A DNA stretch of 47,700 nt, from assembly GCA_949067325.1 (NCBI GenBank), contig CARTDZ010000003.1, positions 1 through 47,700 on the forward strand, written 5' to 3'. The notes beneath the pieces are model-generated. The model was not told where the DNA came from, did not search any database, and saw nothing but the letters and a program-made list of their open reading frames with translations. Source of the stretch: an uncultured Eubacteriales bacterium. GTDB lineage: Bacteria; Bacillota; Clostridia; Christensenellales; UBA1242. Below, piece by piece: positions 25,296 to 47,700 of this stretch. Each line of letters starts with the position of its first letter. Position 1 is the first letter of the stretch. The translations under genes and the position numbers were made by a program.

Positions 25296-25299
25296 AAAA

Positions 25300-26304: not shown

Positions 26305-26320
26305 TTTTTACCTCAATGGT

Positions 26321-26349: not shown

Positions 26350-26351
26350 TC

Positions 26352-26423: not shown

Positions 26424-26451
26424 TACGCGGTTTTGACTTGTTTGAACTTTA

Positions 26452-26814: not shown

Positions 26815-26966
26815 ACAGGTAAAAACGCCTCCTGAAAATAAAAATATTCTTGCCAAAAGTCATACATTTTAGACATCAAATAGCTATAAACAAAATGCAG
26901 TGTCAGATCATGTCGAAGTGTGTCAAAAATGAATAAGGAGATTTAAAAAAGCAAAAATAGAGGCAA

Positions 26967-27447: not shown

Positions 27448-28152
27448 TTAAAAGAATTCTCGAACTTTGCTTTTGTAACTGAAAGAGTAAACTCCATCAT
27501 CGCCGACCAGAACATGATCAATAAACTGAACGCCCAAAGTTTGGCAAAGATTGCTCAGATACTCCGTTGCAGTTTTGTCTTGATCAGAAGGCACGGCGGC
27601 TCCGCCTGGGTGATTATGTGTTACAAACACCATTGCTGCATGAGTACTTGCCAAAAAGTTTGATATTTGAAGTGGAGTGATACCTACCATGTTTATACTT
27701 CCTGAGGCAAGCTTTCGTTTTGCAATTATGTTTTTTGAACAATCAAGCCCAACTATAAACAGTTCTTCATTGTTTTTAAAACGCAGCAGCTGTTCACTAT
27801 AATCAAATATTGCGTCATATCCTGATAGGTTTTCTCGCTTCGTTCTTTTGCAAGTTTGATATAAAAAGAATATTTCAGTCAATTGTCTTATGAGCTTTGC
27901 TGCTCGCTCGCCAATCCCTCGAACTGTCATAAGCTCACTTTCTTCAGCATCAAGCACTGATGCTATGTTGCCGAACTTGTCTAGCAATCTGTGAGCGAGT
28001 GGATTGACATCGCCTCGCGGAAATATATATGTAAGTATAAATTCCATGGCCTGAACACTGCTTAAAGTTTCAATGCCAGCATTGCAGACTGTGTCAAGCA
28101 GTCTGCCTCTATGCCCAGCATGAATATTTTTCTCGTCGTCGTTGTATTTCAT
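27448..28152 (-). CDS. radC: RadC-family JAB/MPN domain protein (UPF0758) with N-terminal HhH region
   Basis: 234 aa with JAMM-like HNHPGGAAVPSDQD and the HhH-like VRGIGERAAKLI. AAAGGAGA SD upstream. It lies 44 bp downstream of the giant ORF on the same strand. Confidence 0.88.
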   Translation of the reverse strand: MKYNDDEKNIHAGHRGRLLDTVCNAGIETLSSVQAMEFILTYIFPRGDVNPLAHRLLDKFGNIASVLDAEESELMTVRGIGERAAKLIRQLTEIFFLYQTCKRTKRENLSGYDAIFDYSEQLLRFKNNEELFIVGLDCSKNIIAKRKLASGSINMVGITPLQISNFLASTHAAMVFVTHNHPGGAAVPSDQDKTATEYLSNLCQTLGVQFIDHVLVGDDGVYSFSYKSKVREFF

Positions 28153-28196: not shown

Positions 28197-31100
28197 TTAT
28201 CGTAACTTTATTGGATCAAACGTTTTGTTTGAGAAGACACCTTTTAATTGATCTTGTTTAGTAAATGATTTATAATAAACTGTTCCATGCCATGAACCAA
28301 TTCCTCCTATGACTGGACCATGTATAGATTCTTTGAAGTAATTTACTTTGTCGCAATAAACTTTTTCCATATAATTTTCATCTTTACTTGCGGATGTCGT
28401 CTCTATAAATGAGTAAAATTCTTGATACAAGCCTCCTCCAGCTAAAGCAAGTCTAGTTTTCTTGAGTCCATTAACATTACCGTACGTTACTAAACCAATA
28501 GCTCCACTTGCACCGCTTTTTTGCACTGACAATTCCCCATCATTGTTCCCAAAAATACCTTTATTTTCAGTGCATTGTCCACTCTTAGCTTTATCTTCGC
28601 TTGGTTTTTTAACTGATTCTACGTGAATAGTTAAGTTCTCAAATTTAGATTTTGTCAAAACGCAATAATCAACATCATTTTTACTTCGCGATGTGCTACC
28701 ATTATTGCCTCCAGCACCTACACGCAGCAAACCGTTGTTTGTGCCATTAAAATCTATACTTCCTCCGTCATGCCCTTGGCCATCTCCTTGTAGTCCATTC
28801 TTCTCACTATATGACTCACCGTGCGTCCCATTTCCAGCAAACCAAGCACCATAGTTGATGCAATTGCTTTGATTTGCATCTTCTGACTGAGTTGCACTTT
28901 CTGGTTTTGCGATAAAGTTGATGGAATTTCCATTGCCATAAGCACTTACTGAAACGAAGTTGTCGACGCCATTAAATTCTGTATCTTTTGTTAAGATATT
29001 TAATGTTTCGTCACCTGAAAGAGATCCATAAAGTGATACATTGACAAATTTTGAAGAGTTTGTCAAGAATGTAGTGCTTTTGCTTGCTGAGGCTTCGCTT
29101 GCTGAGTCTCTGCTTACTGAGCCTCCCTTTGCTGAGCCTCCGCTTACTGAATTTAAAATTTTTACATCTTTGGTAAATTTTTCTTGGTCTGTTCCTTGGC
29201 CTGTTCCTTGGTCTGTTCCTTGGTCTGTTCCTTGGCCTGTTCCTTGGCCTGTTCCTTGGTCTGTTCCTTGGTCACTATACATATAACTATTTTTATTTAC
29301 AATGTTTAAGAAATGTCCATTTCCTGAAATGTTGACATTTTGAGGGCCTATATTTGAAGAAATTTTTACATTTATATCTTGAGTCATTATTATATTATAA
29401 ATTATAGCTCCGTTATCTGATACAGAAATATTACCTGGTGTTTGATCACCACCACCTATATCATAGTTTTCATATGTATCTACAACTTTAAGGCTACCGT
29501 TTTCTCGATCGCTAAAATTTATGTATTTCAAAATCACTTTTTGATCCTTTATGCCTAGATATTCTGATGACGTAGCTATTCCACCGAAGAAGAAATCTTT
29601 TTGTGCTTCTTTTATCTCAACTGAATAATTTGCGTCTAAAATGTTTGTGATAGTGTCAGAATCAGTATATTGAGAAACTATTTCTTTGTCACCCAAAGTA
29701 ACACTTTTTACTGGTCTCAATACTGAAGTGTCTATATAACTTGCATCAAATATACTTGCAAGTGTTTCAAACATCAACACCTTTGTTAAGTTGAATTCAT
29801 ATGTAATTGTTCTAGTTGTGCCAATATCATTTCCGTCTTCATTAAAGTCTTTATATTTAACATCTAATGTCACATCATTTCCACTAGTGGTAAGCTGTGC
29901 TTCATAGGTGGCAGATTCACCTTCTTCAAGCTCTTCTGAAACAAGGGTCAAAAGTTTTTTATTTTTATTATAGGTAAGCTCTATACCGTTAATTTTTAAG
30001 CTGTAATACTCATCCTCTTCAGGTTCCTCTTTTTCAACTTCCTGAACAGATATCTCTGTATAAGAGTCGTCTTCATTTTTCAAATAATATTTCAACAAGT
30101 ACAAAACTAAGGATTCGCCATTTTCATATGAAGCATAATAGTATTCACGGTCTTTATCTTGGAAGACTATGTTAACAGTCGTTGCGCTTTCTGGCAAGTT
30201 GGATTTGATTTTCGCAGACGTATTTGCTTCTATAGTTATGTTGCCTGTCATCAAACCACTATACTGTACAGTCAATCCATCTGCATCAAAAATTGTATCA
30301 TTGGTACTTGCCAAAGTGTCAGTATTTTGAGTGATTTTTATATTGCCTTTGCCTTCCTCACCATTCTTACCAATCAGTTTTGCATCTATCTTTACACCAT
30401 ATTTGAATTTGAAGGCGCTATAGTTTTCGTAGACTTGGACGCCTGCGAAATTGTAAAGCGTATTGCCTGTCGTATTTGAAAGTACAACATTGCCATCAGT
30501 ATCAGTTTGATAATCACTATTATCAAATTGTCCTGATTGAACATTGGTATAAACCGATGTTGTCAATTGATAATCATCTCCAATGTTTTGCATTTTGGTT
30601 GCTCCTATTTGCTCATTATCGGCAAGCTTTATTACAGGAGCAACTTTGCTGTTGCTATTAATAACAGATACAAATTCATCTATATCAACTGTTTTACTTA
30701 TAATCAAAGTAATAGCGTTGTTTGTCGAACGAACAATCTCAAAGCTTTCGAAAGTCGATCCAGTTGCTGCTACATATTTATACGAAGTATTGAAATTGTA
30801 ATTTCCATTTCCATCATAGCTAAACAATGGATCTGATGCAGGGTCATAATAGCCAATGTATTTAGTGTTAAAATTGCCTGCAAGTGCTTTTTCATTTAAT
30901 GTCAATGTAACTTCTTGATTGTCAGCATCTATTGGATTTACTGAATAACTATTTACTATTTGTTTAACAGTTGACGAGTTGTCTATTCCGTCAAAAACAA
31001 ATTCTTTTTTATATTCAGTCTGCGACAGATTGATATTTCCACTTGCCGCATCAACAAACTCAAGGTTTTCTGCCTTTCCTCCCACAACTTGTTGAGTATA

Positions 31101-34100
31101 TGCTTCAAATGTTTTATTATTGAATAATTTTTTAAATTCAGTAATGCCAAAATCACCTGAGCAAGTATTGACATTTTCGCTTTCGTTTGAAGTGTTTGAT
31201 GTTGATGTCAACTTTGCATTTGGTGCATAATACATTATCTTATTTGTATTGTCATAAATCATGTAGTAAATTTTGTTTTCATGATCTTTTAAGCATATAA
31301 TATTATTTGATGTCTTTGTATTACCAGTCTCACCCCACGTCAAAGTCATTCCAGAACTGCTAGTAAAATTCAAGTCCGTTGCAATTCCAAACAAGCCACG
31401 AGTAGTTGATTTTTCTTTATCATCAAATACAGCCAGTCCATTGAAATCATCAAATATAATTGTTTTTGCATCTTTATAAGAAAATTGCACATTAGATAAA
31501 GAATATGAGCCTTCCGCTTTCGTCATAACAGCCTCTAAACTTACAAATATATCCTTGTTTTCATCAATCCTGTAACCTTTTATCTTGAAATAATTTTTGG
31601 CATTTTGAACTTCTGTGCTATTGTTATTTAATGTCAAATTTAATGTCAAATTATTTAAAGTTAAATTATTGATTGAAAAATCTTGAGGCTTACTCTTCGA
31701 TTCGAAATTGAGTTTAACCTCGAAGTTAAGCGTCATATTGCCTGCCGTGAAATATTTTTCAGCATCTGCATTGTTTCCAACAAGCACAAAAGGCTCTCCA
31801 TTGATTGTGGTGGTTTTGTTTTCAGAATTTGTATAATAAGAGGTGGTTTCTTTTGAAATACTTTCTTCTTTACTTGGCTGTTTCTCTTTTCCTTCGATAT
31901 ATGCAAAGTTAAATTGATCGTTTATCTTTTCATATCCTTCATATTTTTCACCATCCAATTTTTCATCATCCAAGAAATTGGCTTGAACTAGCTGATCGTT
32001 TGCATACATCTGCCTGTGATGCCAGATTTGACGATGTCCTGCGTTATCATTTTTATGTGAATATACATAAAGCAACAGTTGATAAGGCACTCTATACAAA
32101 ACAGAAATAGGTGACTTGCAATTGCCATATGAAATCACAAGGCTGTCTTGTCTATATTCATATTCACTTGATCGACCATATTGTTCAACTATTCTATAAT
32201 CTTCATCTTTATCCTGATTTCCTGCTGGGTCTGTTTCCAAATCACTTGAAGAGAAGGCCTTTTTGTTTTCAGCATTAAAACCTGTCAGTCGATATCTAAA
32301 AGCATTATATTCACTGGATACAACAGAACCATCACCTGAAGTCTCTCCCTTTTCCCCAACTCGGCCAAGATCGAGCAATTGATCCTCGACATTTACTGTT
32401 GAAAGTAAATAACCAGTCCTGTAGTAGTTGTCCCATGCGTCTTTAATAGTTTTTTGTTCAGTCCATCCCATATGTTTAAGGTTCAAAGTTCCGTTCGCAT
32501 TAATTGATTGAGCTGAACTGTTTGTCTTAGAGATATCGCTGGCTCTATTTTTGAAATATCCTATTGAATATGCATTGACATTAGCATTGTCAGATGCAGC
32601 TTGATAAAGTTCTATATTGTTGACAGTGTAATTCGTATAGCCTTGCATAATTTCTTTCTCAGAATCGTCTATGGAATCTTCACCTAGATTTTCAGTTTGT
32701 GCCTTTGTTATAAAGGTCGGATCTTTTCCAAGGGCTTCGATTGAGCCTTCGTTGTAGCAATTTGATATTGTTACTGTAGCGTCTTCGCTGCCAAGGCCAA
32801 CAATTCCGCCCGCTGAAGATACATGGTCGCCTGCGACAGACTTGTTGCCAGCTTTGACTATGCCTGAGTTGTATGAGTTGTAGATGTTGAGGGCGGCGTT
32901 AGCGTGACCAACAAGGCCGCCAGCTTGATAGTTTGCAGATGTTTCGCTTAAAGCACTTTGCGCCTTTCTATAGCCATTGATAACTGAGTTTGCGTTGTAT
33001 GAATTATAAATAGTCAATTGAGCTTGTGTATAACCAACCAAACCACCAACACTCATATCTGTGCCTTGTGCATTCATAACTTCTATAGTGCCGTAGTTTG
33101 AAGAATAGTTGATTGTGAGTGGTCCACCTGTTTGAACATGTCCGACAAGACCGCCTACATCTATACCACCGCTTGATTGTTGTAAAATACCCACCATGTT
33201 TGTGACAGCGGTTAATGTGCTGCCTTTCTCGTTTGTTTGTCTTGCGACTGCGCCCCAGTTGCCATTATTTGCGTCTGTGTTTACAATTCTGCCAGAAAGA
33301 GTCAGGTTTGCAACTTCAGTATTGTTAAGTGTGCCAACAAGAAGTGGCGATGTCATTACAGTAGCATTGTCATTTGTTATTCTAAGGTTGAATACTTTTT
33401 TGCCCGTCAAATTGTTGAATAACGCTCGAGTGCCGTTATTAAACTTTATACTGCTAAGTTCTTCAATTGTATGACCATTGCCGTCGAAAATAGTGGCACT
33501 GCTTGGCAATTCGATCATTCCTGTCGCTTCAGTGTCCATATTATAATCATCTTCACTTTTGCTTGTATTGGCAAAGTTTATATCATTGAGCAGGAAGACA
33601 ATTGAAATGTTTGGTATGCCCTCAAGATGTCTTTTTGAAAGATTATACAAGCCCATTGCATTTGGTATGCCGTAAGCGTATTTATCCGCTGAGGTAGTGG
33701 TTTCTCCATCTCTAGTTGTTGGAGTTGTTGGAGTTTGTGCAGGTTGACTGTTCTTATTTGTTTCATATACTGAAAGTCTTTGATATTTGAAAGTATAAAT
33801 GTTTGCGTTTGAGCTTTTGTTGGTTGTTTGATTTTCAGCCAAATATGTTTTAGTATTATATGGAATATTGCCTGTTGTTGCATTCGCATCTTTTTCTATT
33901 TTATACAGAGATGATGGTTTAAGATAATAAAATTCTTTTCTTGTTGGATAGCCAAAGTTGAAGCTATAATCCATTGATGCATAATCTTCACCCGTCACCT
34001 GCGACCAACCGCTTGACAAGCAAGAATTGTCATTTAAAAGTTCATTAAATCCTTTTGCACTTTTGTCTTTGTCCCAATCTCTCTTCACATTAATTCCGCT

Positions 34101-40100: not shown

Positions 40101-43100
40101 AAGCACAAAGCCCGCCATATTGCCTTGACCTTTGATGTTGAAAGTGAGAAGTGAAATAGAATTCATTTGATAATATGCATCGCTATTATCATCTATTTTT
40201 CCACCTATAACATAAACGTTGTCGCCACCCACTCTTGAGTTTGTTATGCTTCCGCTGTTGCGAAGAGCAAATCCAGCAACGTTTGAGTTCCAACTTGAAC
40301 TTGCATTAAGGTATATTGGCATTGTTGTTCCACTGCCATTTATATAGGTTATATTCAAACCATAGCTTGTCGAAGCATTTGTATTGCTGCCAAACGCAAC
40401 AACGCTTGAATTTGTGATATTTCCGCTGTTTGAGATTGCAAAGCCAGCAATTTCAAACATAGAATAATCGCTTATGTCGGCCAAAATTTGACGTCCGCCG
40501 CCAAAGAGGTTTACTGTAACATTTTTGATAGTTGTTGTACTTGCGACGTTTTTGAATAGTGCAAGCGAAAGAGTATTTTGACCTTGCTCTTTTTCTGTGT
40601 TGAATGATTCAATGTGTATTGTATGGCCGTTTCCGTCAAGGCTCAAAATTTTGTCTGTGTCGATTGGACGATAGTTTTTGAGATAAATATCTTTCATCAA
40701 AATATAGTCGCGAGCGTCGCCTTCAGCCATAGCCAAGAAGTCGGTTTCATCTTCCACGCAAATTGGCAGGTCTTCATCAGAATATTGTTTTACTGAAACG
40801 CCAAACTCTTTTATCACTGGCAAGGTAAGACCGCCATAGTTGATATAGGTAGTCATTCTCATGCGTACAGTGGTTGTTTCTGGTGTTTCTTTTAAGCCTG
40901 TTACAACAAGATTGTTGCCGCTTTCTTTGATTGAGAATATGCCGTTTATTGAAGAGACAAATTCACCTGTTTCTTTGATGTAAATATTGCTCCAGCCGCC
41001 AGTTTCTTCGTTGAAATAGTCAACACGCTCTTTAAGTGGAATTTGTTCAACGTGAGTTCTGTCATAGTTGATGCTGTAGTAAGCTGTTTTGTCAGCAAGC
41101 AATTCTTTATGATAGCCGTTTGAAGCAAAGCTTGTTCTGGCCGCGTTTAGTTGTGCAACCGCATTGTTCAACTCTTCACTACTCATGTCGTAGTTATATT
41201 CTTCAGGCATAAAGGCATATTCAAAAGCAAGAGGTGTATCAAGACCTATATATGATTTGACAATATTGTCATAGCTTGAGAAAATTTTGATTGAACTTGG
41301 ATCTGTATCGATCGCGAGATCTACAACTGTAACCGTGTTTGTTGCTGTTTTTATTTGACCTTCGCCAAGCACTTCAGCATTTATCTTGAAAGCGTTGTTG
41401 CCGCCAGAAACTTGGGCGTTTACGTCAATTGAAAGAGTGAATGTCACAAGTCGTCTGCCTGCGATGTCAGAAGGCACTTCTTGTTGGTTTGTGATTTTTA
41501 TGCCTTTGACTGCATCAGAAAGTTTGATTGGAGATGCGGTCACTGTCTGATCACTATCAAAGTAAAGCTTGCCAGTGACTTGCTCGCCTTTGGCCGTGAA
41601 AGAGAGCTGGCTTTGGCCATTGATGACGATTTCTGGGTCTTGGAGATAAGCCACTTTGAGGAAATGCTTCACACTAGCCCCTTCTATCAAATTGCCATTC
41701 GCGTCATAGAAGGTGATATCAAAAGTGAGGTTTGTGTCAACATTGACAGATTGATTTATCCAAAGATAGAAATAAATTGCACCTTTTGATTTGTCTTGCA
41801 CACTTGGAATAATTGTCACATTGTTTTGTGATGTTTCTATATTTGCGTTGCCGTCATCATAGAACTTTGTCTCTGTACTTGCAAGCACCTTGCGCAAAAC
41901 AACCGCATTTGCCGTTGTAGCACCTTGATAAGATAGCTTCATGCTGTGATAGTTTGCAAATTCTGGGTTTATATTGATTTTTAGCACTGAGCCATAACCA
42001 GGAGCAAGCACGCTTGAAGGAGTGCCTTCAACAGTATAAACTGTTTTGTAACTGTCAAAGCCCTCTACTTTTTCATAGGTCATGCTTGAAAGTTTGTAGC
42101 TGTTTACGTCAACGTGATTGAAGCGTTGTGGCGTCAAAGCCGCTTCAAAATCTGTGCTGACAATTTCACTGTCTGAGTGAAGTGAAACTTTGTAAGTTGC
42201 AGCTCTTGTAACACTCCATTTATAGCTTTCATGCACTGAAATTTCTACAATAAATTCTATTTCAACAATTCCGTTTGGAAGAGATGTGACATTGTCCTTT
42301 TTTGTGAGAGTGATATTAAATCGTTGTTCGTCGCCAAATGCAGCAGTATAAACGCCCTCGCTAACCTTTGTTATTTCAAGGTCAATTCCATCAAGTGACA
42401 TTTTTGGAAAGAGAATGTCGTTTTGATTTGATGTGCGAAGAAGTGCTGTGAGCTTGCCTGTGGTCGAAGGTGTGATTGCAATCTTATCTTCTGTTTTGAC
42501 AAGGTCAATACCGCCTTCAAAGGTTGTGAGAAGGAAGCTGTGTCCAAACTCTGAGTTTGCTGCCATTTGGAAGCTTTCATATTTTGCGTCTGTCAAAATT
42601 GTTGGTGTCACACTTACATTTTTGCCCTGAACAATATTGTTTTCGTTCACGTTAAGCACAAGCGGACTTGTGAAATTATACGCTGAAGAAGCAAGCTTGA
42701 AATTGTTTTGTGTGAGATTGTAAGTTTGTGCAGAGCTTCCTAAACGAAGTGAAGTTTTGTCAAAATTGTAAGTTATTGAACGAGTTTTGCCTTTTAAAAG
42801 ACTTACTACGCCGCCATCTTCAATTTCAATTGTGTTTGAAGAGGCCACAAGTTTTGACAATGCATAGACAACCTTGACTTTGATTGTCTTTTTTGCTGTA
42901 TAATCTTGCTTTGAATAGATTGTTATTTCAGCGTCGCCAACACCAGTGAAGATAAGTTCGTTTGCCAAAATTTGAGCAACATAAGCATTGCTTGTAGTTG
43001 CAACAAGTCCTGAAAAGTCATCTATTCCAAAAAGTTGAGATAGTGTGATTGTGTTGTAAGCTTTAAGCTCACGGCTTTCACGGTCTTTGTCAGAAACGTC

Positions 43101-46100
43101 TTCTTGAACTTCATAGAAATTGCCAAGCACTTCATCTTGAGAAGCTGCCAAAGTTTTGTAGAAACCAGCATTTTCAACAGTTTTTACTTGAAGCCCTGTC
43201 AAAGTTGCTTCTTGAGGTTGATAAACTTCTTTAAGGTGAGCATCGCCGCCGTTTACATAAGAAAGGAAGCCTTCTTCGCCAGATGAAACAAAATTGTCAT
43301 TTCCTGTTATGTCAGCTGGATAATATGCAATTGTTTCATTTCCGCCAGCGTCTCTTGTCACAACATAACCATTTGTAAGAGTTACACTGCCAAGATCTGC
43401 ACCTACTGAAGCGAAAGACAAGTTGATAGTTCCAGCATTTGTATAAACAAGAGCTTTTGCGTCACCAACAAGAACTTCAGATTTTGTATAGTCGTATGCA
43501 TAAGACTTTTCTATAGCGCCACTGTTTACCCCTACAAGGCCAGCAACTTTTGAAGCTGTAAACTTGTTTGTTTTGGATTTTGGTTGACTGGCTGTGTCTT
43601 GTCCATCGCTGAAGTTGTAGAATTCTACTCGACAGCCTGAAATTGTGCCAGCATTTTGTGCAGCGACACCCGCGGCCATTGAGCTGCCTTTGATGTTGAG
43701 GCCTAAAACTGAAGAATTTTCAATCAATGCATCATTTTGGTTTATTCCTACAATTCCGCCAACTTCACTGCCAGTAATGCTGCTGTAAGTGTAGTCTGTG
43801 CCAATTGCATAAACATCAACTGTCACATTTGAAATTGTACCTGCGTTTATGTCAGCCACAAAACCATTGCCAACAACTTCACCTGCAAAGGTTATATTTT
43901 TGATTGTGCCAAGGTTTGTGTTTGCAAAATTGCGACCTTTTAAAACAATTGTAACATCTTCTCTTATACCTTGAAGTCCGCCAACAAAAGATTGATGTCC
44001 AGCAAAGTCTGTCACTTCAATGTTGTTCATAATCGTATAAAACTTGGTAGGGTCTAAAGCTTTAAATTGGCTGGCTGAATATACTCTATACGCCGTCTCA
44101 AAGCCTTGTCCGTCAGCTACAGTTACAGGAATTTTGATGAGAATGTCACTAAATGGCACTTCTTTATTTGAATTGTTTTTGAAATATGCGTTTTCGTTTT
44201 CAATTAAGCGCTCATATTGCTTGCCAAGCTCTGAAAGCAATATGCTTTGAATTTGAGGATTGTTTTTTTCATAGAATGAAATTCTGCCATTGTTGATAGC
44301 GTCAGTTGGCAAGATGTAGATAAAACCACTTTTGCCTTTGGTTGCTCTAAAGGTTGCGACATCGCTGCCTTCTGAAACTGGAGAGATTGAAATAAAATCA
44401 TCTTGAACATCTAAGTTGTTTGTGACAAAGAAGGTCAGGTTTTTATTTTTTGCATTGGTTGGTGATGTAGATGTCACAATAATTTCTTGAGACGCGTCTC
44501 CTATTTCAAAATAGATGCCGTCAGTTGTATTGTGGCTTTCAAGATAAACCTTTTCGATACGGTCAGCGTTTAAGATAGAAACATTGATAGTCGTTTCAAG
44601 CGCCAAGACTGCATTCTTGTCATTATCGCTATAATTATATCCGATTTTTAAGGTGTCATTAAACAACGCCTGTCCATCAAGTTTGAGACCTTTTATGGTA
44701 AATGACAAATATGATTTGCTGCTGCTTAAGTTTATGTTTTCAAGTTTGTAAATACCACCCGCAAGCGTGATTTCATGACTGTCAGCAGCCAGATGTTCAC
44801 CATTAAAAGTAAAGTATTTAAGGTCGCTATAAGTTATGTTGTTTTGTGCGAAATTTATAACGATATCAGCAGTTGTGTCCGCGTCATCATTTACAGAAAC
44901 TTGAGTGTAAACTTTTACGCTTGAAATATTGGCTGCGAGAGTTGCAGGAGCGAAAAAGCTTTCAATTTTTATCACACGATAGAAAACAACTTCTGCCTCG
45001 CTTGAACCAGTAAGACTTTTGCCAACAAAGCGCACAATCATATATGCCGTACCAACACTGTTGACAGAAAGTGTTTTTGTGTTTAAGTTTACTGAAACTA
45101 TGTCATTTGTTTTTAGGCTTTCATTGTTAAAATATTTTTGTAAGTTGGCAAAGTCAAATTCTATAGGGTCACCATTCTGGTCTTTTTCGCCAACAAAGCG
45201 GAAGTCAAGGCTGGCCTCACTGCTTACACCTGCGACTGAATTTGTCACAACGTTGAATGGAAGCGAATTGCCAGATTTGATCATCAAAAAGTTCAATGCC
45301 TTTGCTGAGCCAACGATCTCATTGCCATTTCCGTCATAAAGCGAGCCATTTGTTTTGTAACCTACAACTGAGTTGTAAGCTGCCAAACTATCAATTGAAA
45401 TTGCAGCATTTGTGAGAGGCAGAAGGACGTTAAGCTCAAACTCTTGGCTTGAAATTCCGTTTTTGTGAACTATTGTGTAAGAGCCTTGTTGTGTCTGGCC
45501 TTTTCCTTCAGGCGCGAGTGTGAAATCAACCTCAAATTCCACCCAAGGGTTTTCGTCATTAAAGCTGTTGAGGTTTGAATTTGTTTGTCTTATGTTTGAA
45601 GCAGTCACAAATTTGTTGTCTACCAAAACACTAAGCCCTTCAATAGTGCTTTGACCATTAAGTTTAAATCGTCTGTTCTCAGTTGAAATTGCCACTGCGT
45701 CAGTTGAGAGATAAACATTGTTTTTCTCTTGATTTTCAAAAACAAGATTTTTAGCTGCTTGTTGAAGATCAAATGTAAGATCTGTCACAACATTGCTGTT
45801 TGCAACTGAAATGAAAGAAAGTCTGACATTTCGAATAGCCGATACGCTTTGTTTTTCGTTGGCTTTTATGTAAAGTCTTGTAGCGTTGATTGCTTTTTCA
45901 TCTTTCAAAACAAAACTGTCGCCATCAACTTCATAGTCGCCTTTGCCTAGAGTGATGATATTATTGCTAGGGTCAAGATAAGAGATGACAAGAGTGTTTT
46001 CGTCAAAGTCCTTGTTTAGCGAGCCAACAAATTCCGCTTGAGAGAAATCAATTGCCAGTTTGTATTTGTATTGAGTCTTATCTTCATTTTCAATAACTGT

Positions 46101-47321
46101 GTTTGGCAAAAGTGCGATATTATAAACTTGGCCAAGATTGTTTTCTTTTGAATAGAAGTTGTAAATGGTTTGCTTGTTTACCACCTCAATATCTTGTCCG
46201 TCAGAAACACGAATAGTGTCGATCTTTTCATAAGACGACACTTTAAATGACATTGTTTTTTCGATATAGTTGAAATCTTCATATCCAATGTTAAAGCAAG
46301 CACTCACTGTGACATTGGCTTTGTCTTTGCCTTCCACCTTGAAAAGAAGAGATCCGTCGGCAAGAATGCTGTTTTGCAGAATGGATATCTGACCATTATC
46401 TGTGTTGCTGCCCTGATATGAAATTACAGGACTGATTTGATAATTTGAAGCATCAAAATTTCCGCTTGGTGTAAATTTTATATAACCCGATTTGCGTCCA
46501 TCTTTTGCAGAGGCGTTTGAAGTAAGATCAATGGTTTGTGAAACAAGCTCGCCATTTTGGGTTGTAAAGATAGGATTGAAATTTTGAGTTGGATTGTAAG
46601 AAAAAGCAAGGTTGACCAAGTTTGAAGAAATTTTGTCAAGTAATGTAAGTTCAACCTTTGCAGTTATGCTAGGGTTGTAAACCGAAGTTGCAATAAGAGC
46701 GACCTTGGCTGATGGAATGTCTTTTTTGTAAGCACTGCCTATTGACAAGACATTTCCTTCAAGGCTGATATTTTCATTTTTGTCTTCTTCTGCAATTTGC
46801 CAAGTAACATCAGTGCGTTTTGAATTTAAAGTTGTTGTAAAGTCAAGAAGCTTTTGTGCGTCAAGTGTGTTTGAATAAACTTCATCATCGCCACCTCTTA
46901 CCGCAAAAAGATTGCTTTTGCCACCAAGCTCCTTTTTCTCTTCCATAGCAGTCACTTCACCATGCACGTAAACTGAAATAGCTTTGCTAACACCGCCATC
47001 ATATGTAGTGACATTTACTGTCGCCCTGCCTTCTGTGTCACCAGCAGTCAATGTTATGACATTTTCATTTCTTGCTTGGCTATATTCAACGCTTGCCATG
47101 ACTATGTTTGGTTGACTTGACGAAACAAGCACGCGGCCGTTGTCCACGCCCTCGACTTTGCAAGTCACTATTGCAGGTTCAACAACCTCTTCGTCAAGCA
47201 CGACAATTTCTTTGTACGTGTCACTTAAAGTGAGGTTGACATTTCGTTCGCCACAAGAGGCGAGCAAAAATCCGCCGCAAATCATAAACAAACTTAAAAG
47301 CCCAACAAAAAACTTTTTCAT
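28197..47321 (-). CDS. Giant 6374-aa surface lipoprotein: Ig-like (Big_2-like) domain arrays plus seven GLUG-motif / parallel beta-helix-like modules
   Basis: Uninterrupted 19,125-nt ORF with an AAGGAGG SD and a lipoprotein signal peptide (lipobox LASC). The first domain resembles Big_2. Dozens of [VAY]GG[ILF]VG-x6-9-[NS]xY repeats are typical of the GLUG motif. There is no LPxTG, C-terminal TM or HExxH. Confidence 0.9.
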   Translation of the reverse strand: MKKFFVGLLSLFMICGGFLLASCGERNVNLTLSDTYKEIVVLDEEVVEPAIVTCKVEGVDNGRVLVSSSQPNIVMASVEYSQARNENVITLTAGDTEGRATVNVTTYDGGVSKAISVYVHGEVTAMEEKKELGGKSNLFAVRGGDDEVYSNTLDAQKLLDFTTTLNSKRTDVTWQIAEEDKNENISLEGNVLSIGSAYKKDIPSAKVALIATSVYNPSITAKVELTLLDKISSNLVNLAFSYNPTQNFNPIFTTQNGELVSQTIDLTSNASAKDGRKSGYIKFTPSGNFDASNYQISPVISYQGSNTDNGQISILQNSILADGSLLFKVEGKDKANVTVSACFNIGYEDFNYIEKTMSFKVSSYEKIDTIRVSDGQDIEVVNKQTIYNFYSKENNLGQVYNIALLPNTVIENEDKTQYKYKLAIDFSQAEFVGSLNKDFDENTLVISYLDPSNNIITLGKGDYEVDGDSFVLKDEKAINATRLYIKANEKQSVSAIRNVRLSFISVANSNVVTDLTFDLQQAAKNLVFENQEKNNVYLSTDAVAISTENRRFKLNGQSTIEGLSVLVDNKFVTASNIRQTNSNLNSFNDENPWVEFEVDFTLAPEGKGQTQQGSYTIVHKNGISSQEFELNVLLPLTNAAISIDSLAAYNSVVGYKTNGSLYDGNGNEIVGSAKALNFLMIKSGNSLPFNVVTNSVAGVSSEASLDFRFVGEKDQNGDPIEFDFANLQKYFNNESLKTNDIVSVNLNTKTLSVNSVGTAYMIVRFVGKSLTGSSEAEVVFYRVIKIESFFAPATLAANISSVKVYTQVSVNDDADTTADIVINFAQNNITYSDLKYFTFNGEHLAADSHEITLAGGIYKLENINLSSSKSYLSFTIKGLKLDGQALFNDTLKIGYNYSDNDKNAVLALETTINVSILNADRIEKVYLESHNTTDGIYFEIGDASQEIIVTSTSPTNAKNKNLTFFVTNNLDVQDDFISISPVSEGSDVATFRATKGKSGFIYILPTDAINNGRISFYEKNNPQIQSILLSELGKQYERLIENENAYFKNNSNKEVPFSDILIKIPVTVADGQGFETAYRVYSASQFKALDPTKFYTIMNNIEVTDFAGHQSFVGGLQGIREDVTIVLKGRNFANTNLGTIKNITFAGEVVGNGFVADINAGTISNVTVDVYAIGTDYTYSSITGSEVGGIVGINQNDALIENSSVLGLNIKGSSMAAGVAAQNAGTISGCRVEFYNFSDGQDTASQPKSKTNKFTASKVAGLVGVNSGAIEKSYAYDYTKSEVLVGDAKALVYTNAGTINLSFASVGADLGSVTLTNGYVVTRDAGGNETIAYYPADITGNDNFVSSGEEGFLSYVNGGDAHLKEVYQPQEATLTGLQVKTVENAGFYKTLAASQDEVLGNFYEVQEDVSDKDRESRELKAYNTITLSQLFGIDDFSGLVATTSNAYVAQILANELIFTGVGDAEITIYSKQDYTAKKTIKVKVVYALSKLVASSNTIEIEDGGVVSLLKGKTRSITYNFDKTSLRLGSSAQTYNLTQNNFKLASSAYNFTSPLVLNVNENNIVQGKNVSVTPTILTDAKYESFQMAANSEFGHSFLLTTFEGGIDLVKTEDKIAITPSTTGKLTALLRTSNQNDILFPKMSLDGIDLEITKVSEGVYTAAFGDEQRFNITLTKKDNVTSLPNGIVEIEFIVEISVHESYKWSVTRAATYKVSLHSDSEIVSTDFEAALTPQRFNHVDVNSYKLSSMTYEKVEGFDSYKTVYTVEGTPSSVLAPGYGSVLKININPEFANYHSMKLSYQGATTANAVVLRKVLASTETKFYDDGNANIETSQNNVTIIPSVQDKSKGAIYFYLWINQSVNVDTNLTFDITFYDANGNLIEGASVKHFLKVAYLQDPEIVINGQSQLSFTAKGEQVTGKLYFDSDQTVTASPIKLSDAVKGIKITNQQEVPSDIAGRRLVTFTLSIDVNAQVSGGNNAFKINAEVLGEGQIKTATNTVTVVDLAIDTDPSSIKIFSSYDNIVKSYIGLDTPLAFEYAFMPEEYNYDMSSEELNNAVAQLNAARTSFASNGYHKELLADKTAYYSINYDRTHVEQIPLKERVDYFNEETGGWSNIYIKETGEFVSSINGIFSIKESGNNLVVTGLKETPETTTVRMRMTTYINYGGLTLPVIKEFGVSVKQYSDEDLPICVEDETDFLAMAEGDARDYILMKDIYLKNYRPIDTDKILSLDGNGHTIHIESFNTEKEQGQNTLSLALFKNVASTTTIKNVTVNLFGGGRQILADISDYSMFEIAGFAISNSGNITNSSVVAFGSNTNASTSYGLNITYINGSGTTMPIYLNASSSWNSNVAGFALRNSGSITNSRVGGDNVYVIGGKIDDNSDAYYQMNSISLLTFNIKGQGNMAGFVLENSGSIASSYAKNIDMANQSEDPTCWTSGFVGTNSRTIITSYVEGVKSEEVKQYAYCRRGSSIKSKVGVVSGFVYENLDGGTIKDNYSNISIANSNLDEQVYLASGFVYINRGSLVNCYSTSQIQNLKYSQMNFSGVDAGGNLKTLEGSYENCYYYNPEYTDFTDNSEPTESSFVTGAGQLKDVTNASSFYGFAVGTEYDEDTIWKMTQKEGLKLNEPDLLTFSHRYYKPLSNATGTQTYTLPYATVSLGGNLIDVQYGSKYNPILIRSAQEFVDVTGKSKSSNITEYFDEQSVNGSYRLIANIDFNDLNASGDEQTGGVDIPSSVKVFTGQFYGNGFTISNLNNTKTQKRMAFGLFASIEQSRKDIRPMVLNLNLTVANLVNNQAAAVGSLAGYMRDASVVNVNVEFAQNAKVEGLNFVGGIVGFALGDSKLKNLTITNATVISTKQLAAGYVDSPTDVLNTDALAVLRANLLPLSTSLTSNMGATIGSYIDIVGRYSYAGGIVGFADIFTKEQSTQKYYSNNDFTAAEDDSKFSLTNLHAFGDTHIQGSVAGGVIGLSGSNSAVRDAKLVINGTMSNNSTHIISTKYYAGGVIGQAFGTLSQIVATHNEELQHKIQSNMGGYYQSNAFDVGRERGAIDIFSATSGNYTQMAIGGLVGYVGSGLMKLSYSNINAIGLTSYLSGGIVGIANIPQKVESYSVNTGDLKGFDTKYLVNQVYAAGDVRAYQKLTIGGIEHNPAAGGIFGQITNGSQISLYAVNSVNFISFYDYTQNANAQDISSFYSSNNISAFVGELKGNPTFAAGDVLAQLKPYVSLLIQTTALTESEGKPTTQTSSTVARIYRYATAGEQASKQDIAPDFAPGIKMGTVAGNTSAYIPDASIAKIEEPALYTEQISVGRNKTQAAFLNNDYWINENWTHPTSELFPTLKYTDAIGYIIYLDNYRIEQTLRRMMANTTAEVIIRGKNSDADDDTNYTDIDLREVLAKREFQNGLTSFAGTLHGMEQYRKDGGEGEYPNIILDRPLFSSTLSGFTIRDAIFKFDFDETIQGDNASIFTTGAARYSGGLVDSDLTNATLTNVTFKVVRPGINLRPNENNAVGLIAPSITGTNITGTKIVITEDGNGSQFASGTSVLTVSYNSEIENEEIKAGLFAGEAKQNSNIRQMTFNGNTIESTIKNDINIISINANNSTNGYKKIALGAIFGSAVLSDGNMTVALLGAKTNKSLGFNVAAPLSEKDSSLVVGGLIGHIDASVDLSFNDNVQGMNSALTVKSCEGDMTYGGIVGKIGDNEDTSSAGSTMSFASGSEDETIPEIKTKLTFDGTANSITYGGIVGYSINALSISDLKTYNMINEVSNEVSNKVSKDDFFKSGSERSINFSYSNSQPLKAQTINYGGLVGKAGNNVKISSSQTNQVSFSAAGEDSLNFVALQATNINAGGLVGNANSVDIDKAYIVADNFYISSPAPSSTRDATATANVGGFVGRAGSVNIQNGDNNVSRYDGHILLNYSSAINVGGFVGSVEKKTDAANTDTTLTNATLNNISFGGTIRIGQNCGNKINVGGTAGYLKVANISVQENYNYGDLYIAQEKGILVEGYYFGGILGKTDIQALVSSIVTNNYSLVTHNSYKTTKDTEKDTEKDTEKDTEKVHINALFGSAPIKGQIGRIVDNFYNHGVVLATDAYGTDMGYNREYDEANGKYGYGEYDETQALCQQIKGGVFGNSANTLTTGHKLKPADLKLNLKVENDDYPDNGVYYYVATSTSKGMPTEYTQPSNKENKTQTMKNIAIIGDGNSIKLKDLTNNFIDIMQGYSYISSLVVELENMVVGEVNNTTTTSTGTTAASDLSVGGLVGKMEGGNIFAVGLSGNIEVAGQRLVNVGGLVGEMTSGTISDSYSVADIIYRAQKNGHMGGIVGKGIADPQNTAFIYGTFSGGSLESYIDTNIHAFAGGSNISIKNSYTFSYINWNDHTSGKTTPDSDRLDVWGDNNKNDVWGDNKNKAYYDKSGINVKRDWDKDKSAKGFNELLNDNSCLSSGWSQVTGEDYASMDYSFNFGYPTRKEFYYLKPSSLYKIEKDANATTGNIPYNTKTYLAENQTTNKSSNANIYTFKYQRLSVYETNKNSQPAQTPTTPTTRDGETTTSADKYAYGIPNAMGLYNLSKRHLEGIPNISIVFLLNDINFANTSKSEDDYNMDTEATGMIELPSSATIFDGNGHTIEELSSIKFNNGTRALFNNLTGKKVFNLRITNDNATVMTSPLLVGTLNNTEVANLTLSGRIVNTDANNGNWGAVARQTNEKGSTLTAVTNMVGILQQSSGGIDVGGLVGHVQTGGPLTINYSSNYGTIEVMNAQGTDMSVGGLVGYTQAQLTIYNSYNANSVINGYRKAQSALSETSANYQAGGLVGHANAALNIYNSYNSGIVKAGNKSVAGDHVSSAGGIVGLGSEDATVTISNCYNEGSIEALGKDPTFITKAQTENLGEDSIDDSEKEIMQGYTNYTVNNIELYQAASDNANVNAYSIGYFKNRASDISKTNSSAQSINANGTLNLKHMGWTEQKTIKDAWDNYYRTGYLLSTVNVEDQLLDLGRVGEKGETSGDGSVVSSEYNAFRYRLTGFNAENKKAFSSSDLETDPAGNQDKDEDYRIVEQYGRSSEYEYRQDSLVISYGNCKSPISVLYRVPYQLLLYVYSHKNDNAGHRQIWHHRQMYANDQLVQANFLDDEKLDGEKYEGYEKINDQFNFAYIEGKEKQPSKEESISKETTSYYTNSENKTTTINGEPFVLVGNNADAEKYFTAGNMTLNFEVKLNFESKSKPQDFSINNLTLNNLTLNLTLNNNSTEVQNAKNYFKIKGYRIDENKDIFVSLEAVMTKAEGSYSLSNVQFSYKDAKTIIFDDFNGLAVFDDKEKSTTRGLFGIATDLNFTSSSGMTLTWGETGNTKTSNNIICLKDHENKIYYMIYDNTNKIMYYAPNAKLTSTSNTSNESENVNTCSGDFGITEFKKLFNNKTFEAYTQQVVGGKAENLEFVDAASGNINLSQTEYKKEFVFDGIDNSSTVKQIVNSYSVNPIDADNQEVTLTLNEKALAGNFNTKYIGYYDPASDPLFSYDGNGNYNFNTSYKYVAATGSTFESFEIVRSTNNAITLIISKTVDIDEFVSVINSNSKVAPVIKLADNEQIGATKMQNIGDDYQLTTSVYTNVQSGQFDNSDYQTDTDGNVVLSNTTGNTLYNFAGVQVYENYSAFKFKYGVKIDAKLIGKNGEEGKGNIKITQNTDTLASTNDTIFDADGLTVQYSGLMTGNITIEANTSAKIKSNLPESATTVNIVFQDKDREYYYASYENGESLVLYLLKYYLKNEDDSYTEISVQEVEKEEPEEDEYYSLKINGIELTYNKNKKLLTLVSEELEEGESATYEAQLTTSGNDVTLDVKYKDFNEDGNDIGTTRTITYEFNLTKVLMFETLASIFDASYIDTSVLRPVKSVTLGDKEIVSQYTDSDTITNILDANYSVEIKEAQKDFFFGGIATSSEYLGIKDQKVILKYINFSDRENGSLKVVDTYENYDIGGGDQTPGNISVSDNGAIIYNIIMTQDINVKISSNIGPQNVNISGNGHFLNIVNKNSYMYSDQGTDQGTGQGTGQGTDQGTDQGTGQGTDQEKFTKDVKILNSVSGGSAKGGSVSRDSASEASASKSTTFLTNSSKFVNVSLYGSLSGDETLNILTKDTEFNGVDNFVSVSAYGNGNSINFIAKPESATQSEDANQSNCINYGAWFAGNGTHGESYSEKNGLQGDGQGHDGGSIDFNGTNNGLLRVGAGGNNGSTSRSKNDVDYCVLTKSKFENLTIHVESVKKPSEDKAKSGQCTENKGIFGNNDGELSVQKSGASGAIGLVTYGNVNGLKKTRLALAGGGLYQEFYSFIETTSASKDENYMEKVYCDKVNYFKESIHGPVIGGIGSWHGTVYYKSFTKQDQLKGVFSNKTFDPIKLR
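29082..29151 (-). repeat. In-frame imperfect 15-bp tandem repeat (~4.6 copies) inside the giant ORF, encoding a Ser/Ala/Gly-rich linker
   Basis: GCTTGCTGAGGCTTC / GCTTGCTGAGTCTCT / GCTTACTGAGCCTCC / CTTTGCTGAGCCTCC / GCTTACTGAA. Confidence 0.8.
29183..29273 (-). repeat. In-frame 12-bp tandem repeat, 7.5 copies, encoding (D/G)QGT repeats
   Basis: CTTGGTCTGTTC and CTTGGCCTGTTC units. The protein reads DQGTDQGTGQGTGQGTDQGTDQGTGQGTDQ. Confidence 0.95.
31629..31670 (-). repeat. In-frame 12/15-bp repeat encoding NNLTL-NNLTL-NLTL
   Basis: TAATGTCAAATT twice, then TAAAGTTAAATTATT. Confidence 0.7.
34119..34169 (-). repeat. In-frame 24+27-bp tandem duplication encoding DVWGDNNKN / DVWGDNKN
   Basis: GTTTTTATTATCACCCCAAACGTC followed by GTTTTTATTATTATCACCCCAAACGTC. 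Confidence 0.9.
35166..35213 (-). repeat. In-frame perfect 12-bp tandem repeat, 4 copies, encoding (KDTE)4
   Basis: TTTTTCAGTATC four times. Confidence 0.95.
36015..36050 (-). repeat. In-frame 12-bp tandem repeat, 3 copies, encoding NEVS-NEVS-NKVS
   Basis: CGATACTTTATT, CGATACTTCATT, CGATACTTCATT. Confidence 0.85.
47253..47321 (-). other. Lipoprotein (SPase II) signal peptide of the giant protein
   Basis: MKKFFVGLLSLFMICGGFLLAS|C has a KK n-region, a hydrophobic core and the lipobox L-A-S-C, with Cys23 as the lipidated residue. Confidence 0.85.
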
Positions 47322-47408
47322 TTTTCCTCCTTGTTTAATATCTCACATTTTGCACGATAATAAACATATTTTGTCGAATTTATTATATAAATTACGAACC
47401 CTATAAAA

Positions 47409-47437
47409 AGTATATAAATTTTGGCAAAAATTGTCAA
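47409..47437 (-). promoter_or_regulatory. Near-consensus sigma-70 promoter TTGACA, 17-bp spacer, TATACT for the giant gene
   Basis: -10 at 47409-47414 and -35 at 47432-47437 on the minus strand. The leader to the ATG at 47321 is about 80 nt. Confidence 0.7.
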
Positions 47438-47627
47438 ATTAATTGCAATTAAAATATTTATATTTTATCAATAATTTAACAAAATATTTTTAATTTTATT
47501 TTGGCAAAAATCAATTAAAAAAATAATTTAAAAATAAATAAAAAAATATTTTTTTTGCTTTTTATTATTTTCTTTAATTTTTGAATTATTTTTCAGTCTT
47601 ATTTTTATATTTTTGTTTTTATTTTCA

Positions 47628-47660
47628 TTTGGTTTTTGTTTGGTTTTTGTTTAGCTTTTG
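47628..47660. repeat. Three helically phased 11-bp T-tract units (TTTGGTTTTTG, TTTGGTTTTTG, TTTAGCTTTTG) in the AT-rich region upstream of the giant gene
   Basis: Direct reading. The 11-bp period with T5 tracts suggests intrinsically bent DNA. Confidence 0.6.
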
Positions 47661-47700
47661 TTTTTTTTGCCATTTTATTTTTCAACTTTTCTTGTAGACT

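Follow-up and report, generated by a model that had tools for sequence, protein, structure and literature searches.

The window, by which we mean the whole 47,700-nucleotide stretch of DNA that was analysed, comes from an uncultured gut Clostridia bacterium and carries one giant ORF on its minus strand, with the following features in and around it.

28197..47321, minus strand: giant ORF, ATG start, 6374 aa, one stop.
28197..28199, minus strand: TAA stop codon of the giant ORF, read directly.
47409..47437, minus strand: promoter-like site of the sigma-70 type (TTGACA-17 nt-TATACT), 11 of 12 consensus positions, a consensus match only.
47326..47332, minus strand: Shine-Dalgarno sequence AAGGAGG, 4-10 nt 5' of the ATG.
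27448..28152, minus strand: radC (RadC-like JAB plus HhH), 44 nt 3' of the giant ORF with no terminator-like site between the two.

The single uninterrupted 19.1-kb frame described in the original prediction is indeed present, and its predicted product has a mass of 692 kDa and a pI of 4.8. The longest other ORF in the window encodes 941 aa, the other unannotated ORFs (792, 852, 217, 134 and 120 aa) bear no relation to the giant protein, and an Rfam search of the whole window gave no match. At the base composition of the window, stop codons are expected at approximately 6.6%, and simple arithmetic gives a chance probability of approximately e^-437 for 6374 stop-free codons.

Giant repetitive genes are easily mis-assembled, and the window derives from an uncultured organism through a metagenome-type assembly, so that the ORF could in principle be an assembly artefact or a pseudogene, i.e. 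chimeric or collapsed and not expressed as one protein, and mis-assembly or frameshifts had been named as a concern. However, a MAG contig matches window positions 17448-38152 with 99.99% identity and zero gaps, and two further assemblies match at 99.96-100%, also without gaps. In addition, there is a separate full-length allele of 6321 aa, and some 18 further colinear orthologues of similar length likewise keep open frames. The DNA repeats inside the ORF are confined to short 9-30-nt arrays, the internal repeats at the protein level are highly diverged, and the GC content is about that of the adjacent genes. These data clearly show that the giant gene is real and intact, and leave the artefact explanation with a negligible probability. 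The claim that giant genes of this size are rare was overstated, as proteins of >10,000 and >30,000 aa have been recorded in several phyla, Firmicutes among them (10.1101/2023.11.21.568195), and giant Ig-repeat adhesins of 5,000-7,600 aa are well known.

From the N-terminus to the C-terminus, the ORF divides into the following regions.

47253..47321, minus strand: predicted type II signal peptide and lipobox (aa 1-23), with an MKK n-region, a 16-residue hydrophobic core, LASC and Cys23.
44067..47252, minus strand: approximately ten predicted Ig-like beta-sandwich domains (aa 24 to ~1085), from AlphaFold2 and Foldseek.
43362..44054, minus strand: GLUG module M1 (aa ~1090-1320), with a GLUG match of 20.1 bits at aa 1184-1210, below the gathering score of 20.5.
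40770..43361, minus strand: conserved region (aa 1321-2184) with one Big_2-like stretch (aa 1427-1491), approximately 30% identity across orthologues.
39252..40769, minus strand: GLUG-type module M2 (aa 2185-2690), better conserved than any other part of the chain, 41-54% identity to orthologues.
32622..39251, minus strand: GLUG modules M3-M6, PF07581 at 21.6, 22.6 and 32.1 bits.
29451..32621, minus strand: hypervariable distal region (aa 4901-5957), 9-17% identity to orthologues.
28200..29450, minus strand: conserved Gly-rich terminal module (aa 5958-6374), with invariant glycines.

The near-consensus promoter, the strong Shine-Dalgarno sequence and the LASC lipobox ending in Cys23 were all as originally predicted. 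The N-terminus reads MKKFFVGLLSLFMICGGFLLASC, followed by G, and the signal peptide, composed of MKK, FFVGLLSLFMICGGFL and LASC, has the make-up of a lipoprotein signal. Nearly all of the approximately 25 relatives with an intact N-terminus have [LF][STAV][AS]C with the Cys approximately 23 residues past an MKK start, within the family pattern MKKF..LL.GG..L(S/T)AC. The signal peptide is also the only window of the giant protein in which Kyte-Doolittle hydropathy exceeds 1.6, and no second hydrophobic segment was found beyond aa 30. Motif, hydropathy and Pfam scans agreed with the claim that other anchors and catalytic signatures are missing. There is no C-terminal LPxTG, the sole LPxT-like string being internal (LPLTN at aa 634) and the chain ending ...FDPIKLR, and no C-terminal transmembrane segment; choline-binding, SLH or CWB2 modules gave no Pfam match; neither HExxH/HxxEH nor a Pfam M26 match is present; and neither a DxDxDG motif nor an RTX Pfam match was found. 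The lipobox, conserved as it is among the relatives, is thus the only recognizable anchoring signal, as had been proposed.

On the strength of this lipobox the giant protein is a predicted lipoprotein, which would be exported by Sec. Its Cys23 would be diacylglyceryl-modified and signal peptidase II would cut the signal peptide, and we therefore propose that the N-terminus is held in the cytoplasmic membrane; lgt and lspA are absent from the window. The host cell is of the Clostridia type and presumably monoderm, the two pointers to such an envelope being the Clostridia affiliation and a PASTA-domain PBP encoded in the window. As Christensenella minuta has been called Gram-negative (PMC12692188), a monoderm envelope is an assumption for the lineage of the giant protein. 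A lone acyl anchor would be a mechanically modest hold for a fibre of 690 kDa, and shedding or extra non-covalent wall contacts may occur.

The AlphaFold2 model of aa 24-1100, calculated from a 16-sequence family alignment, is all-beta with a mean pLDDT of 85, and Foldseek returned 207 PDB matches for it at E<=1e-3. Among the matches listed, the best are mostly tandem Ig-like chains and include Nup210, contactin Ig1-6, cadherin ectodomains, Sap, SbsC and PrgB, with E values of 1e-22 to 1e-8. The model thus supports the earlier reading of the first ~1100 residues as an Ig-like array, and we take aa 24 to ~1085 as tandem Ig-like beta-sandwiches by predicted fold. The further claim that the first domain resembles Big_2 found no support, since Pfam Big_2 (PF02368) did not match the giant protein even at E<=5 and matched only three of 16 orthologues, with a best E value of 0.009. 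A second Ig-like array had been placed at aa ~1300-2220, and of this claim only the Big_2-like stretch of approximately 65 aa stood, as a weak hhalign match to Ig-like domain 1 (P 0.004), whereas aa 1321-2184 have no PDB or Pfam relative even when the family profile is used. We also considered aa 1321-2184 or aa 4901-5957 as diverged copies of the N-terminal Ig-like domains and rejected the idea, the best hhalign result being that P of 0.004 for this one stretch.

For membership of the GLUG family we took a PF07581 match at or above the Pfam gathering score of 20.5 bits, and three segments exceeded it: aa 2801-3700 (21.6 bits), aa 3501-4400 (22.6 bits) and aa 4201-5100 (32.1 bits). Within M3-M6, the approximate boundaries of which are aa 2691-3340, 3341-4150, 4151-4540 and 4541-4900 respectively, (A/V/Y)GG(I/L/V)(V/I)G repeats lie 29-84 residues apart, and M2 has the motif variant AGF(A/V)xxNxGxIxN, an opening cap LDGNGHTI and many invariant columns. 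The six modules are mutually homologous with hhalign probabilities of 88-98% (96% for M1 with M2 and with M6, 98% for M3-M4, 97% for M3-M6, 95% for M4-M6 and 96.5% for M5-M6). The M2 family profile found no relative among PDB sequences, and a sequence search with it gave five fragments only, one of them named 'hypothetical protein'; a scan of genome contigs with aa 2800-3600 gave no match. GLUG repeats have been tied to the solved solenoid 3N6Z (PMC4021314), and by this analogy the modules are presumably right-handed beta-helices. The statement that GLUG repeats dominate the remainder of the chain held for aa 1090-1320 and 2185-4900, but not for the last ~1470 aa, which are without a GLUG motif. 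Six GLUG modules behind an Ig-like stalk in one chain form an architecture that has not been described before.

The hypervariable region includes approximately 900 aa that are inserted when compared with the nearest related species, and could be aligned to one relative only (L004), at aa 5044-5170; Pfam gave no match in this region or in its counterparts in seven relatives. The terminal module that follows is conserved, Gly-rich and previously undescribed. It carries the motifs IIMTQDI..ISGNGHFL, VNVSLYGS, NYGAWFAGNGTHG and VGAGGNNG, its invariant glycines are Gly 6000, 6099, 6165, 6186, 6202 and 6205, and its final ~100-170 residues vary between family subgroups. It has no relative in the PDB or Pfam, and hhalign against M6 gave a probability of 63%. 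AlphaFold2, run on a 19-row alignment, reached a mean pLDDT of 51.5 and was confident only at aa ~5972-6209, where it predicts short strands. The leading Foldseek matches of this model are predominantly right-handed beta-helices, among them 3N6Z, IgA1 protease (6XJA and 7JGJ), Ag43, Pet and tailspikes, all non-significant at E>=0.4. We also considered a polyglycine-II sandwich like that of the phage S16 gp38 tip or the ALK GlyR domain, and rejected it on the short strands of the model and on these non-significant, mostly beta-helical matches.

Right-handed beta-helices are typical of pectate lyases, pectin methylesterases, polygalacturonases and tailspikes. In this context, the giant protein might be a surface-tethered glycan-processing machine in which some of the beta-helix modules or the unassigned regions are polysaccharide lyases or hydrolases, comparable with pectate-lyase-fold enzymes and phage tailspike depolymerases, with mucin, dietary fibre or other microbes' capsules as substrates; the Ig-like stalk would then merely position the enzymes. 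Such a function would fit the predominance of beta-helix enzymes and tailspikes in the terminal-module Foldseek list, none of them significant, and a weak Pfam Pectate_lyase_5 match (E 0.013) in the terminal module of one relative. In addition, approximately 1900 aa (1321-2184 and 4901-5957) are without a fold assignment, so that an unrecognized enzyme or toxin domain could hide there. However, Pfam and NCBIfam detected no CAZyme, lyase or hydrolase family at any permissive threshold, every structural match of the terminal module lies at E>=0.4, and enzymes normally keep their active sites, but conservation of this chain is lowest in its distal region. We consider a glycan-processing role unlikely.

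When 1.84 billion representatives were searched exhaustively by HMMER with aa 24-1100, only 34 matches resulted, approximately 19 of which are colinear full-length proteins of 5444-6941 aa. No family member has an informative name in the databases, one relative being a 'hypothetical protein', and neither single sequences nor four family profiles (N-terminal array, aa 1321-2184, M2 and terminal module) found a significant relative in the PDB, in agreement with the claim that the family and its architecture are uncharacterized. Using UvrB as bait to recover syntenic loci in genome contigs, we found the giant ORF 5' of radC-uvrB in 30 of the 32 species genomes with UvrB identity of at least 76% and enough flank, and at that locus in none of 13 more distant genomes. 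By this sampling, the family does not extend beyond a single clade of Christensenellales-like Clostridia, uncultured bacteria of the gut. In most related species radC directly follows the giant ORF at a gap of 15-150 nt, with uvrBA nearby, and may be co-transcribed with it.

Conservation declines from the anchored N-terminus towards the free C-terminus, identity to orthologues being 0.42 over aa 1-100, still 0.41-0.54 over aa 2200-2800, and down to 0.09-0.19 over aa 4900-6374. Over aa 1-3600 the conspecific allele differs by approximately 1%, whereas aa 3600-5400 and 6000-6374 show heavy divergence and 26 indel blocks, so that its distal half is mosaic. The N-to-C conservation gradient, the clade restriction and the radC synteny are the most informative features beyond the single sequence.

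Conserved proximal parts followed by hypervariable C-terminal ones, with the last ~100-170 residues differing by subgroup, are also what a polymorphic toxin or contact-dependent effector would present, i.e. a conserved filament delivering a variable C-terminal toxin into neighbouring cells as in CdiA, Rhs or LXG systems, and a beta-helical shaft recalls the filamentous haemagglutinin-like CdiA. However, Pfam and NCBIfam found no catalytic or toxin domain in the giant protein or in the terminal modules of 38 family members, Rhs/YD, LXG, VENN and TPS features are absent, and what lies 3' is the conserved radC rather than a small variable immunity gene. The variable ~1000 aa, moreover, precede a conserved terminal module instead of following a demarcation motif at the very C-terminus, and toxin delivery is a very improbable function for this protein.

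The same mosaicism could be read as escape from phages or antibodies that target a coat, in which case the protein would be an envelope coat or spacer like an S-layer or glycocalyx, forming a dense brush of fibres without a specific ligand that protects the cell against phages, immune factors or predators, or sets the spacing between cells. Consistent with a coat, the promoter and Shine-Dalgarno sequence are strong, the S-layer proteins Sap of B. anthracis and SbsC of Geobacillus are among the structures that Foldseek matched to the Ig-like array, and the gene keeps one conserved chromosomal locus across the clade, which suggests a housekeeping envelope role. Against this, SLH, CWB2 and other wall-binding modules were not found by Pfam, there is no sign of self-assembly or of high copy number, and the module conserved at the very tip in all orthologues points more to a specific function than to a passive brush. 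A coat or spacer is, in our view, decidedly unlikely.

The reading we favour, and think probable, is that the giant protein is a long, mostly beta-structured surface fibre, anchored by lipid at its N-terminus and ending in a binding tip that varies. The tandem Ig-like domains would form a flexible stalk taking the chain through and past the wall, and the six GLUG modules a stiffer shaft, broken by the conserved aa 1321-2184. The free C-terminal end, comprising the hypervariable ~1050 aa and the Gly-rich terminal module, would be the business end, and its ligand would vary, being a host or dietary glycan, mucus or another cell. Such a tip would diversify fast, both between species and, by allele mosaicism, within the species. 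More specifically, aa 4901-6374 might form an undescribed receptor-recognition tip for partner-specific cell-cell attachment or host-specific colonization, renewed by recombination between alleles, a suggestion that we consider rather unlikely. It would act much as the tip of a phage tail fibre does, with the difference that its fibre is chromosomally encoded and lipid-anchored, and an example of a possible partner is given by the flocs in which Christensenella co-aggregates with hydrogen-consuming methanogens (PMC7002349).

Christensenellales-like Clostridia are widespread and largely uncultured gut commensals. The giant gene dwarfs its neighbours in size and is fixed at a single chromosomal locus across the clade. 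If it encodes the main surface fibre, it is the obvious candidate for what determines adhesion, co-aggregation, phage susceptibility and host specificity, and the variable distal half would lend itself naturally to use as a strain marker. Of structural interest are the shaft of six GLUG modules and the conserved Gly-rich terminal domain without a known relative. The protein extends the catalogue of giant bacterial surface proteins and changes no paradigm, although a predicted N-terminal lipid anchor on a fibre of approximately 690 kDa is unusual beside the LPXTG, SLH and T1SS solutions.

With the S-layer proteins of Firmicutes (Sap and SbsC) the giant protein shares only a general Ig-like structural resemblance, and it is without their SLH or CWB2 modules. 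With beta-helical fibres (TpsA/FHA, CdiA, Ag43, Pet and phage tailspikes) it has in common a right-handed beta-helix as the probable rigid shaft; these need two-partner or type V secretion across an outer membrane, or virion assembly, and Pfam found no TPS or beta-barrel domain in the giant protein. It shares the repeated GG(I/L)VG...N with other GLUG-motif proteins (PF07581), such as the streptococcal IgA1-protease/Zmp type and 3N6Z, but unlike the IgA1-protease/Zmp type has no M26 peptidase, HExxH, G5 or LPXTG.

RTX adhesins occur in diderm hosts, where a C-terminal T1SS signal and Ca-binding RTX repeats accompany retention in the outer membrane. Such T1SS giants, e.g. SiiE (PMC6272769), the Marinomonas MpAFP/MpIBP (PMC3492233) and LapA-like proteins, range from 600 kDa to 1.5 MDa. 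The giant protein resembles them in size, in its long Ig-type extender (BIg in the RTX adhesins) and in the distal position of the proposed ligand-binding modules, and differs in having a Sec/lipoprotein signal in place of the T1SS signal and a Clostridia host. Giant adhesins of Gram-positive bacteria are typically sortase-anchored via a C-terminal LPXTG, and their tip would therefore be N-terminal, whereas the giant protein would have an N-terminal, lipidic anchor and a C-terminal tip. It is nevertheless similar to adhesins of the Mobiluncus mulieris type, the example being a giant Ig-repeat protein of 7651 residues (PMC10619420), in size class, long Ig-like arrays, rank as by far the largest protein of the genome and presumed adhesive role. 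In contrast with the near-identical, cross-linked repeats of the Gram-positive giant Ig adhesins, its domains are highly diverged, and over half of its chain is not Ig-like.

LigA and LigB of Leptospira have an N-terminal lipobox, tandem bacterial Ig-like domains and binding at the free C-terminal end, and the giant protein is like them in its lipobox, its tandem Ig-like domains and the free C-terminal end that we propose as the binding part. The Lig proteins are 1200-1900 aa long, reside in a diderm outer membrane and have domains that are readily detected as Big_2; to our knowledge they are without GLUG or beta-helix modules, a hypervariable region of ~1000 aa or a Gly-rich terminal module. 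Set beside these systems, the giant protein most likely serves as a long fibre for attachment; the family to which it belongs is unnamed, its kind a familiar one.

The giant gene is a single uninterrupted reading frame preceded by putative expression signals, as follows.

28197..47321, minus strand: giant ORF, ATG start, 6374 codons, single stop
47437..47409, minus strand: promoter-like site TTGACA-17-TATACT, 11/12 consensus positions matched
4-10 nt upstream of the giant-gene ATG, minus strand: AAGGAGG, read from sequence

The product has a computed mass of 692 kDa and pI of 4.8; the second-longest ORF of the window has 941 aa. With stops making up ~6.6% of random codons at the window base composition, the arithmetic chance of 6374 open codons is ~e^-437, so this frame is not a random occurrence. 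The N-terminus, MKKFFVGLLSLFMICGGFLLASC followed by G, is a classic type II signal peptide whose lipobox is LASC, and a regex and hydropathy scan of the giant protein found no HExxH, C-terminal LPxTG, RTX-like motif or second hydrophobic segment. The original prediction thus stands as regards the ORF, near-consensus promoter, SD and lipobox, and also the lack of LPxTG, C-terminal TM and HExxH. The intergenic stretch 5' of the gene (47340-47700) is extremely AT-rich with T-rich short repeats (TTTTTG, TTTGGTTTTTG), and the window stops short of the next gene upstream.

The giant gene and its family are real, and we regard the probability of an artefact as negligible. Window positions 17448-38152 matched a MAG contig of GCA_948709845.1 gap-free at 99.99% identity, and a Logan assembly and a second MAG were 100% and 99.96% identical to the window sequence respectively. 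Internal similarity in a self-comparison of the protein was weak and diverged, DNA tandem repeats in the gene were limited to short 9-30-nt arrays, and its GC content resembles that of the flanking housekeeping genes. An exhaustive HMMER search recovered a 6321-aa conspecific allele (P0001) and ~18 more full-length orthologues, all open frames. Out of 1.84 billion representative proteins, no more than 34 were related to the N-terminal 1077 residues at E<=1e-3, 23 of them below 1e-30. Where the N-terminus is intact, nearly all of these relatives show MKKF..LL.GG..L(S/T)AC, the Cys lying ~23 residues past the MKK start. No cluster member has a name, the sole label anywhere being 'hypothetical protein'; the family is unnamed and confined to one clade.

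Along the protein we distinguish the following segments, the GLUG modules M1-M6 being assigned by profile-profile comparison.

aa 24 to ~1085, minus strand: Ig-like array (AlphaFold2 model and Foldseek)
aa 1090-1320: GLUG module M1
aa 2185-2690: GLUG module M2
aa 2691-3340: GLUG module M3
aa 3341-4150: GLUG module M4
aa 4151-4540: GLUG module M5
aa 4541-4900: GLUG module M6
aa 4901-5957: hypervariable region, 9-17% identity to orthologues
aa 5958-6374: terminal module, C-terminal in all orthologues where visible

The proposal that the first ~1100 residues form an Ig-like array was borne out by AlphaFold2 (16-sequence alignment), which gave an all-beta chain of ~ten sandwich domains at a mean pLDDT of 85, and by 207 PDB matches in Foldseek at E<=1e-3, the top ones being multi-Ig chains (Nup210, contactin Ig1-6, cadherin ectodomains, Sap, SbsC and PrgB). 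Sap and SbsC are S-layer proteins; a passive protective coat is a reading that we consider rather improbable. The first domain had been likened to Big_2, which found no Pfam match in the giant protein and matched weakly in only 3 of 16 orthologues. The segment aa 1321-2184, which falls within the second stretch originally read as Ig-like (~1300-2220), is ~30% identical across orthologues; its family profile found no Pfam or PDB relative, and its profile similarity to the array is limited to one Big_2-like stretch (aa 1427-1491).

The predicted GLUG repeats are present: PF07581, the only Pfam family detected in the protein, scored above gathering in three segments, and the six modules are mutually homologous at 88-98% probability for many pairs, with a (D/Y/G)GNG(H/F/N)(T/S)I-type cap at the start of M2, M3, M5 and M6. 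GLUG repeats have been linked to 3N6Z (PMC4021314), a solenoid of solved structure; a beta-helix fold is presumed for these modules. A tethered array of glycan-active enzymes seems unlikely.

The hypervariable region aligns to the closest species only, relative to which the giant protein has a ~900-aa insertion, and Pfam detected no family there, nor in the corresponding parts of seven relatives. The terminal module has six invariant glycines and the motifs IIL..DI...I.GNGY.I, NV..YG, NYG.IIAGNG..G and G.GGNGG.GG, and found no Pfam or PDB relative. AlphaFold2 was confident for aa ~5972-6209 only, with short strands there; the leading Foldseek matches were mostly right-handed beta-helix proteins, including 3N6Z and IgA1 protease, all at E>=0.4, and hhalign gave 63% against M6. 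One possibility is that this module is a GLUG-type cap that has diverged very far.

Identity to orthologues peaks at the N-terminus, aa 1000-1300 and aa 2200-2800 and is lowest across the last 1500 aa. Within the species, P0001 differs from the window protein by ~1% over aa 1-3600 and is identical or nearly so over aa 5400-6000. In the other stretches, aa 3600-5400 and 6000-6374, up to 45% of columns differ and 26 indel blocks occur. Such alternating blocks point to, and are compatible with, a distal-half mosaic arising by recombination between alleles. Two in-frame arrays each differ by three units in P0001; both are plain length variants within stretches predicted to be linker-like.

29183-29273: 12-nt tandem repeat, 7.6 copies encoding GT[DG]Q
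35165-35217: 12-nt tandem repeat, 4.4 copies encoding KDTE

The window neighbours are chromosomal housekeeping genes (class II aminoacyl-tRNA synthetase, mraW, PASTA-domain PBP, nrdD, metG, uvrA, uvrB and radC), together with a Fic gene; the 4Fe-4S radical-SAM gene adjoining nrdD is probably nrdG. With UvrB as bait we took the 80 best species genomes (top identity 87%), nearly all titled gut MAG or uncultured bacterium, from mouse, deer, rabbit, goat and human, with the labels Clostridia, Christensenella, Catabacter, Ca. Onthoplasma and Ca. Scatosoma. Of the 32 genomes with UvrB >=76% and >=7 kb of upstream sequence, 30 had a giant ORF that ends just before radC and runs off the locus edge; none of the 13 genomes below 76% had one upstream of radC. 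The gene is accordingly fixed and syntenic within one clade. Exceptions within the clade are L013, with only a 1098-aa ORF before radC, and L026, where the giant-gene end lies farther from uvrB and a further ORF, of 1617 aa, intervenes.

27448-28152, minus strand: radC, 44 nt downstream of the giant-gene stop
25318-26304, minus strand: fic (Fic/DOC), between radC and uvrB
26452-26856, minus strand: small unannotated ORF near fic
26967-27329, plus strand: small unannotated ORF near fic

The 44-nt gap, in which no terminator-like site was found, and the same adjacency (15-150 nt) in most related species suggest that the giant gene and radC are co-transcribed, and no functional link between them is evident. 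A polymorphic toxin is quite improbable, because no toxin family was detected in 38 terminal modules and the gene directly following is the conserved radC, not an immunity gene. Matches to fic by tblastn were confined, among the fetched loci, to the conspecific L001 and L002, suggesting an insertion specific to this species; two HTH genes (HTH_3-type) adjoin it (24300-26900).

Elsewhere in the window, Zn_peptidase_2 (PF04298), a family of putative neutral zinc metallopeptidases, is represented by two adjacent paralogues in tandem, 1734-2456 and 2469-3236 (minus strand), the second much more diverged (E 1.8e-25 versus 3e-74). Some 1.4 kb upstream of metG (12739-14215) holds no ORF >=100 aa, and since no Rfam family reached gathering score in the whole window, neither a T-box nor another known RNA can be recognised that would account for this gap. 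A 792-aa Lys/Glu-rich protein adjoining uvrA (16902-19280, plus strand), also found in the conspecific MAG, has no Pfam match and shows no relationship to the giant protein.

As the only anchoring signal is N-terminal, the conserved part would lie at the membrane and the variable C-terminal part would be free. The Ig-like array would then act as an extender, the repeat modules as a stiff section and the distal end as a diversifying binding tip; this polarity and architecture make a surface fibre with such a tip the reading we favour, with reasonable though limited confidence. The greatest novelty lies in the conserved Gly-rich module at the C-terminus, the predicted N-terminal lipid anchor on a fibre of such size, and the distal-half mosaicism within a species. 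Size alone is unremarkable and not the rarity first supposed, since much larger proteins are documented (10.1101/2023.11.21.568195).

Judged by the defining features of known systems, the giant protein carries the lipoprotein signal and GLUG motif, and none of LPXTG, M26, RTX/T1SS, SLH or polymorphic-toxin families. Leptospira Lig proteins are lipobox-anchored Ig-array adhesins and rank among its nearest functional analogues. So too do the GLUG/IgA1-protease-type solenoids and the giant Ig-repeat adhesins (PMC10619420, PMC6272769, PMC3492233).
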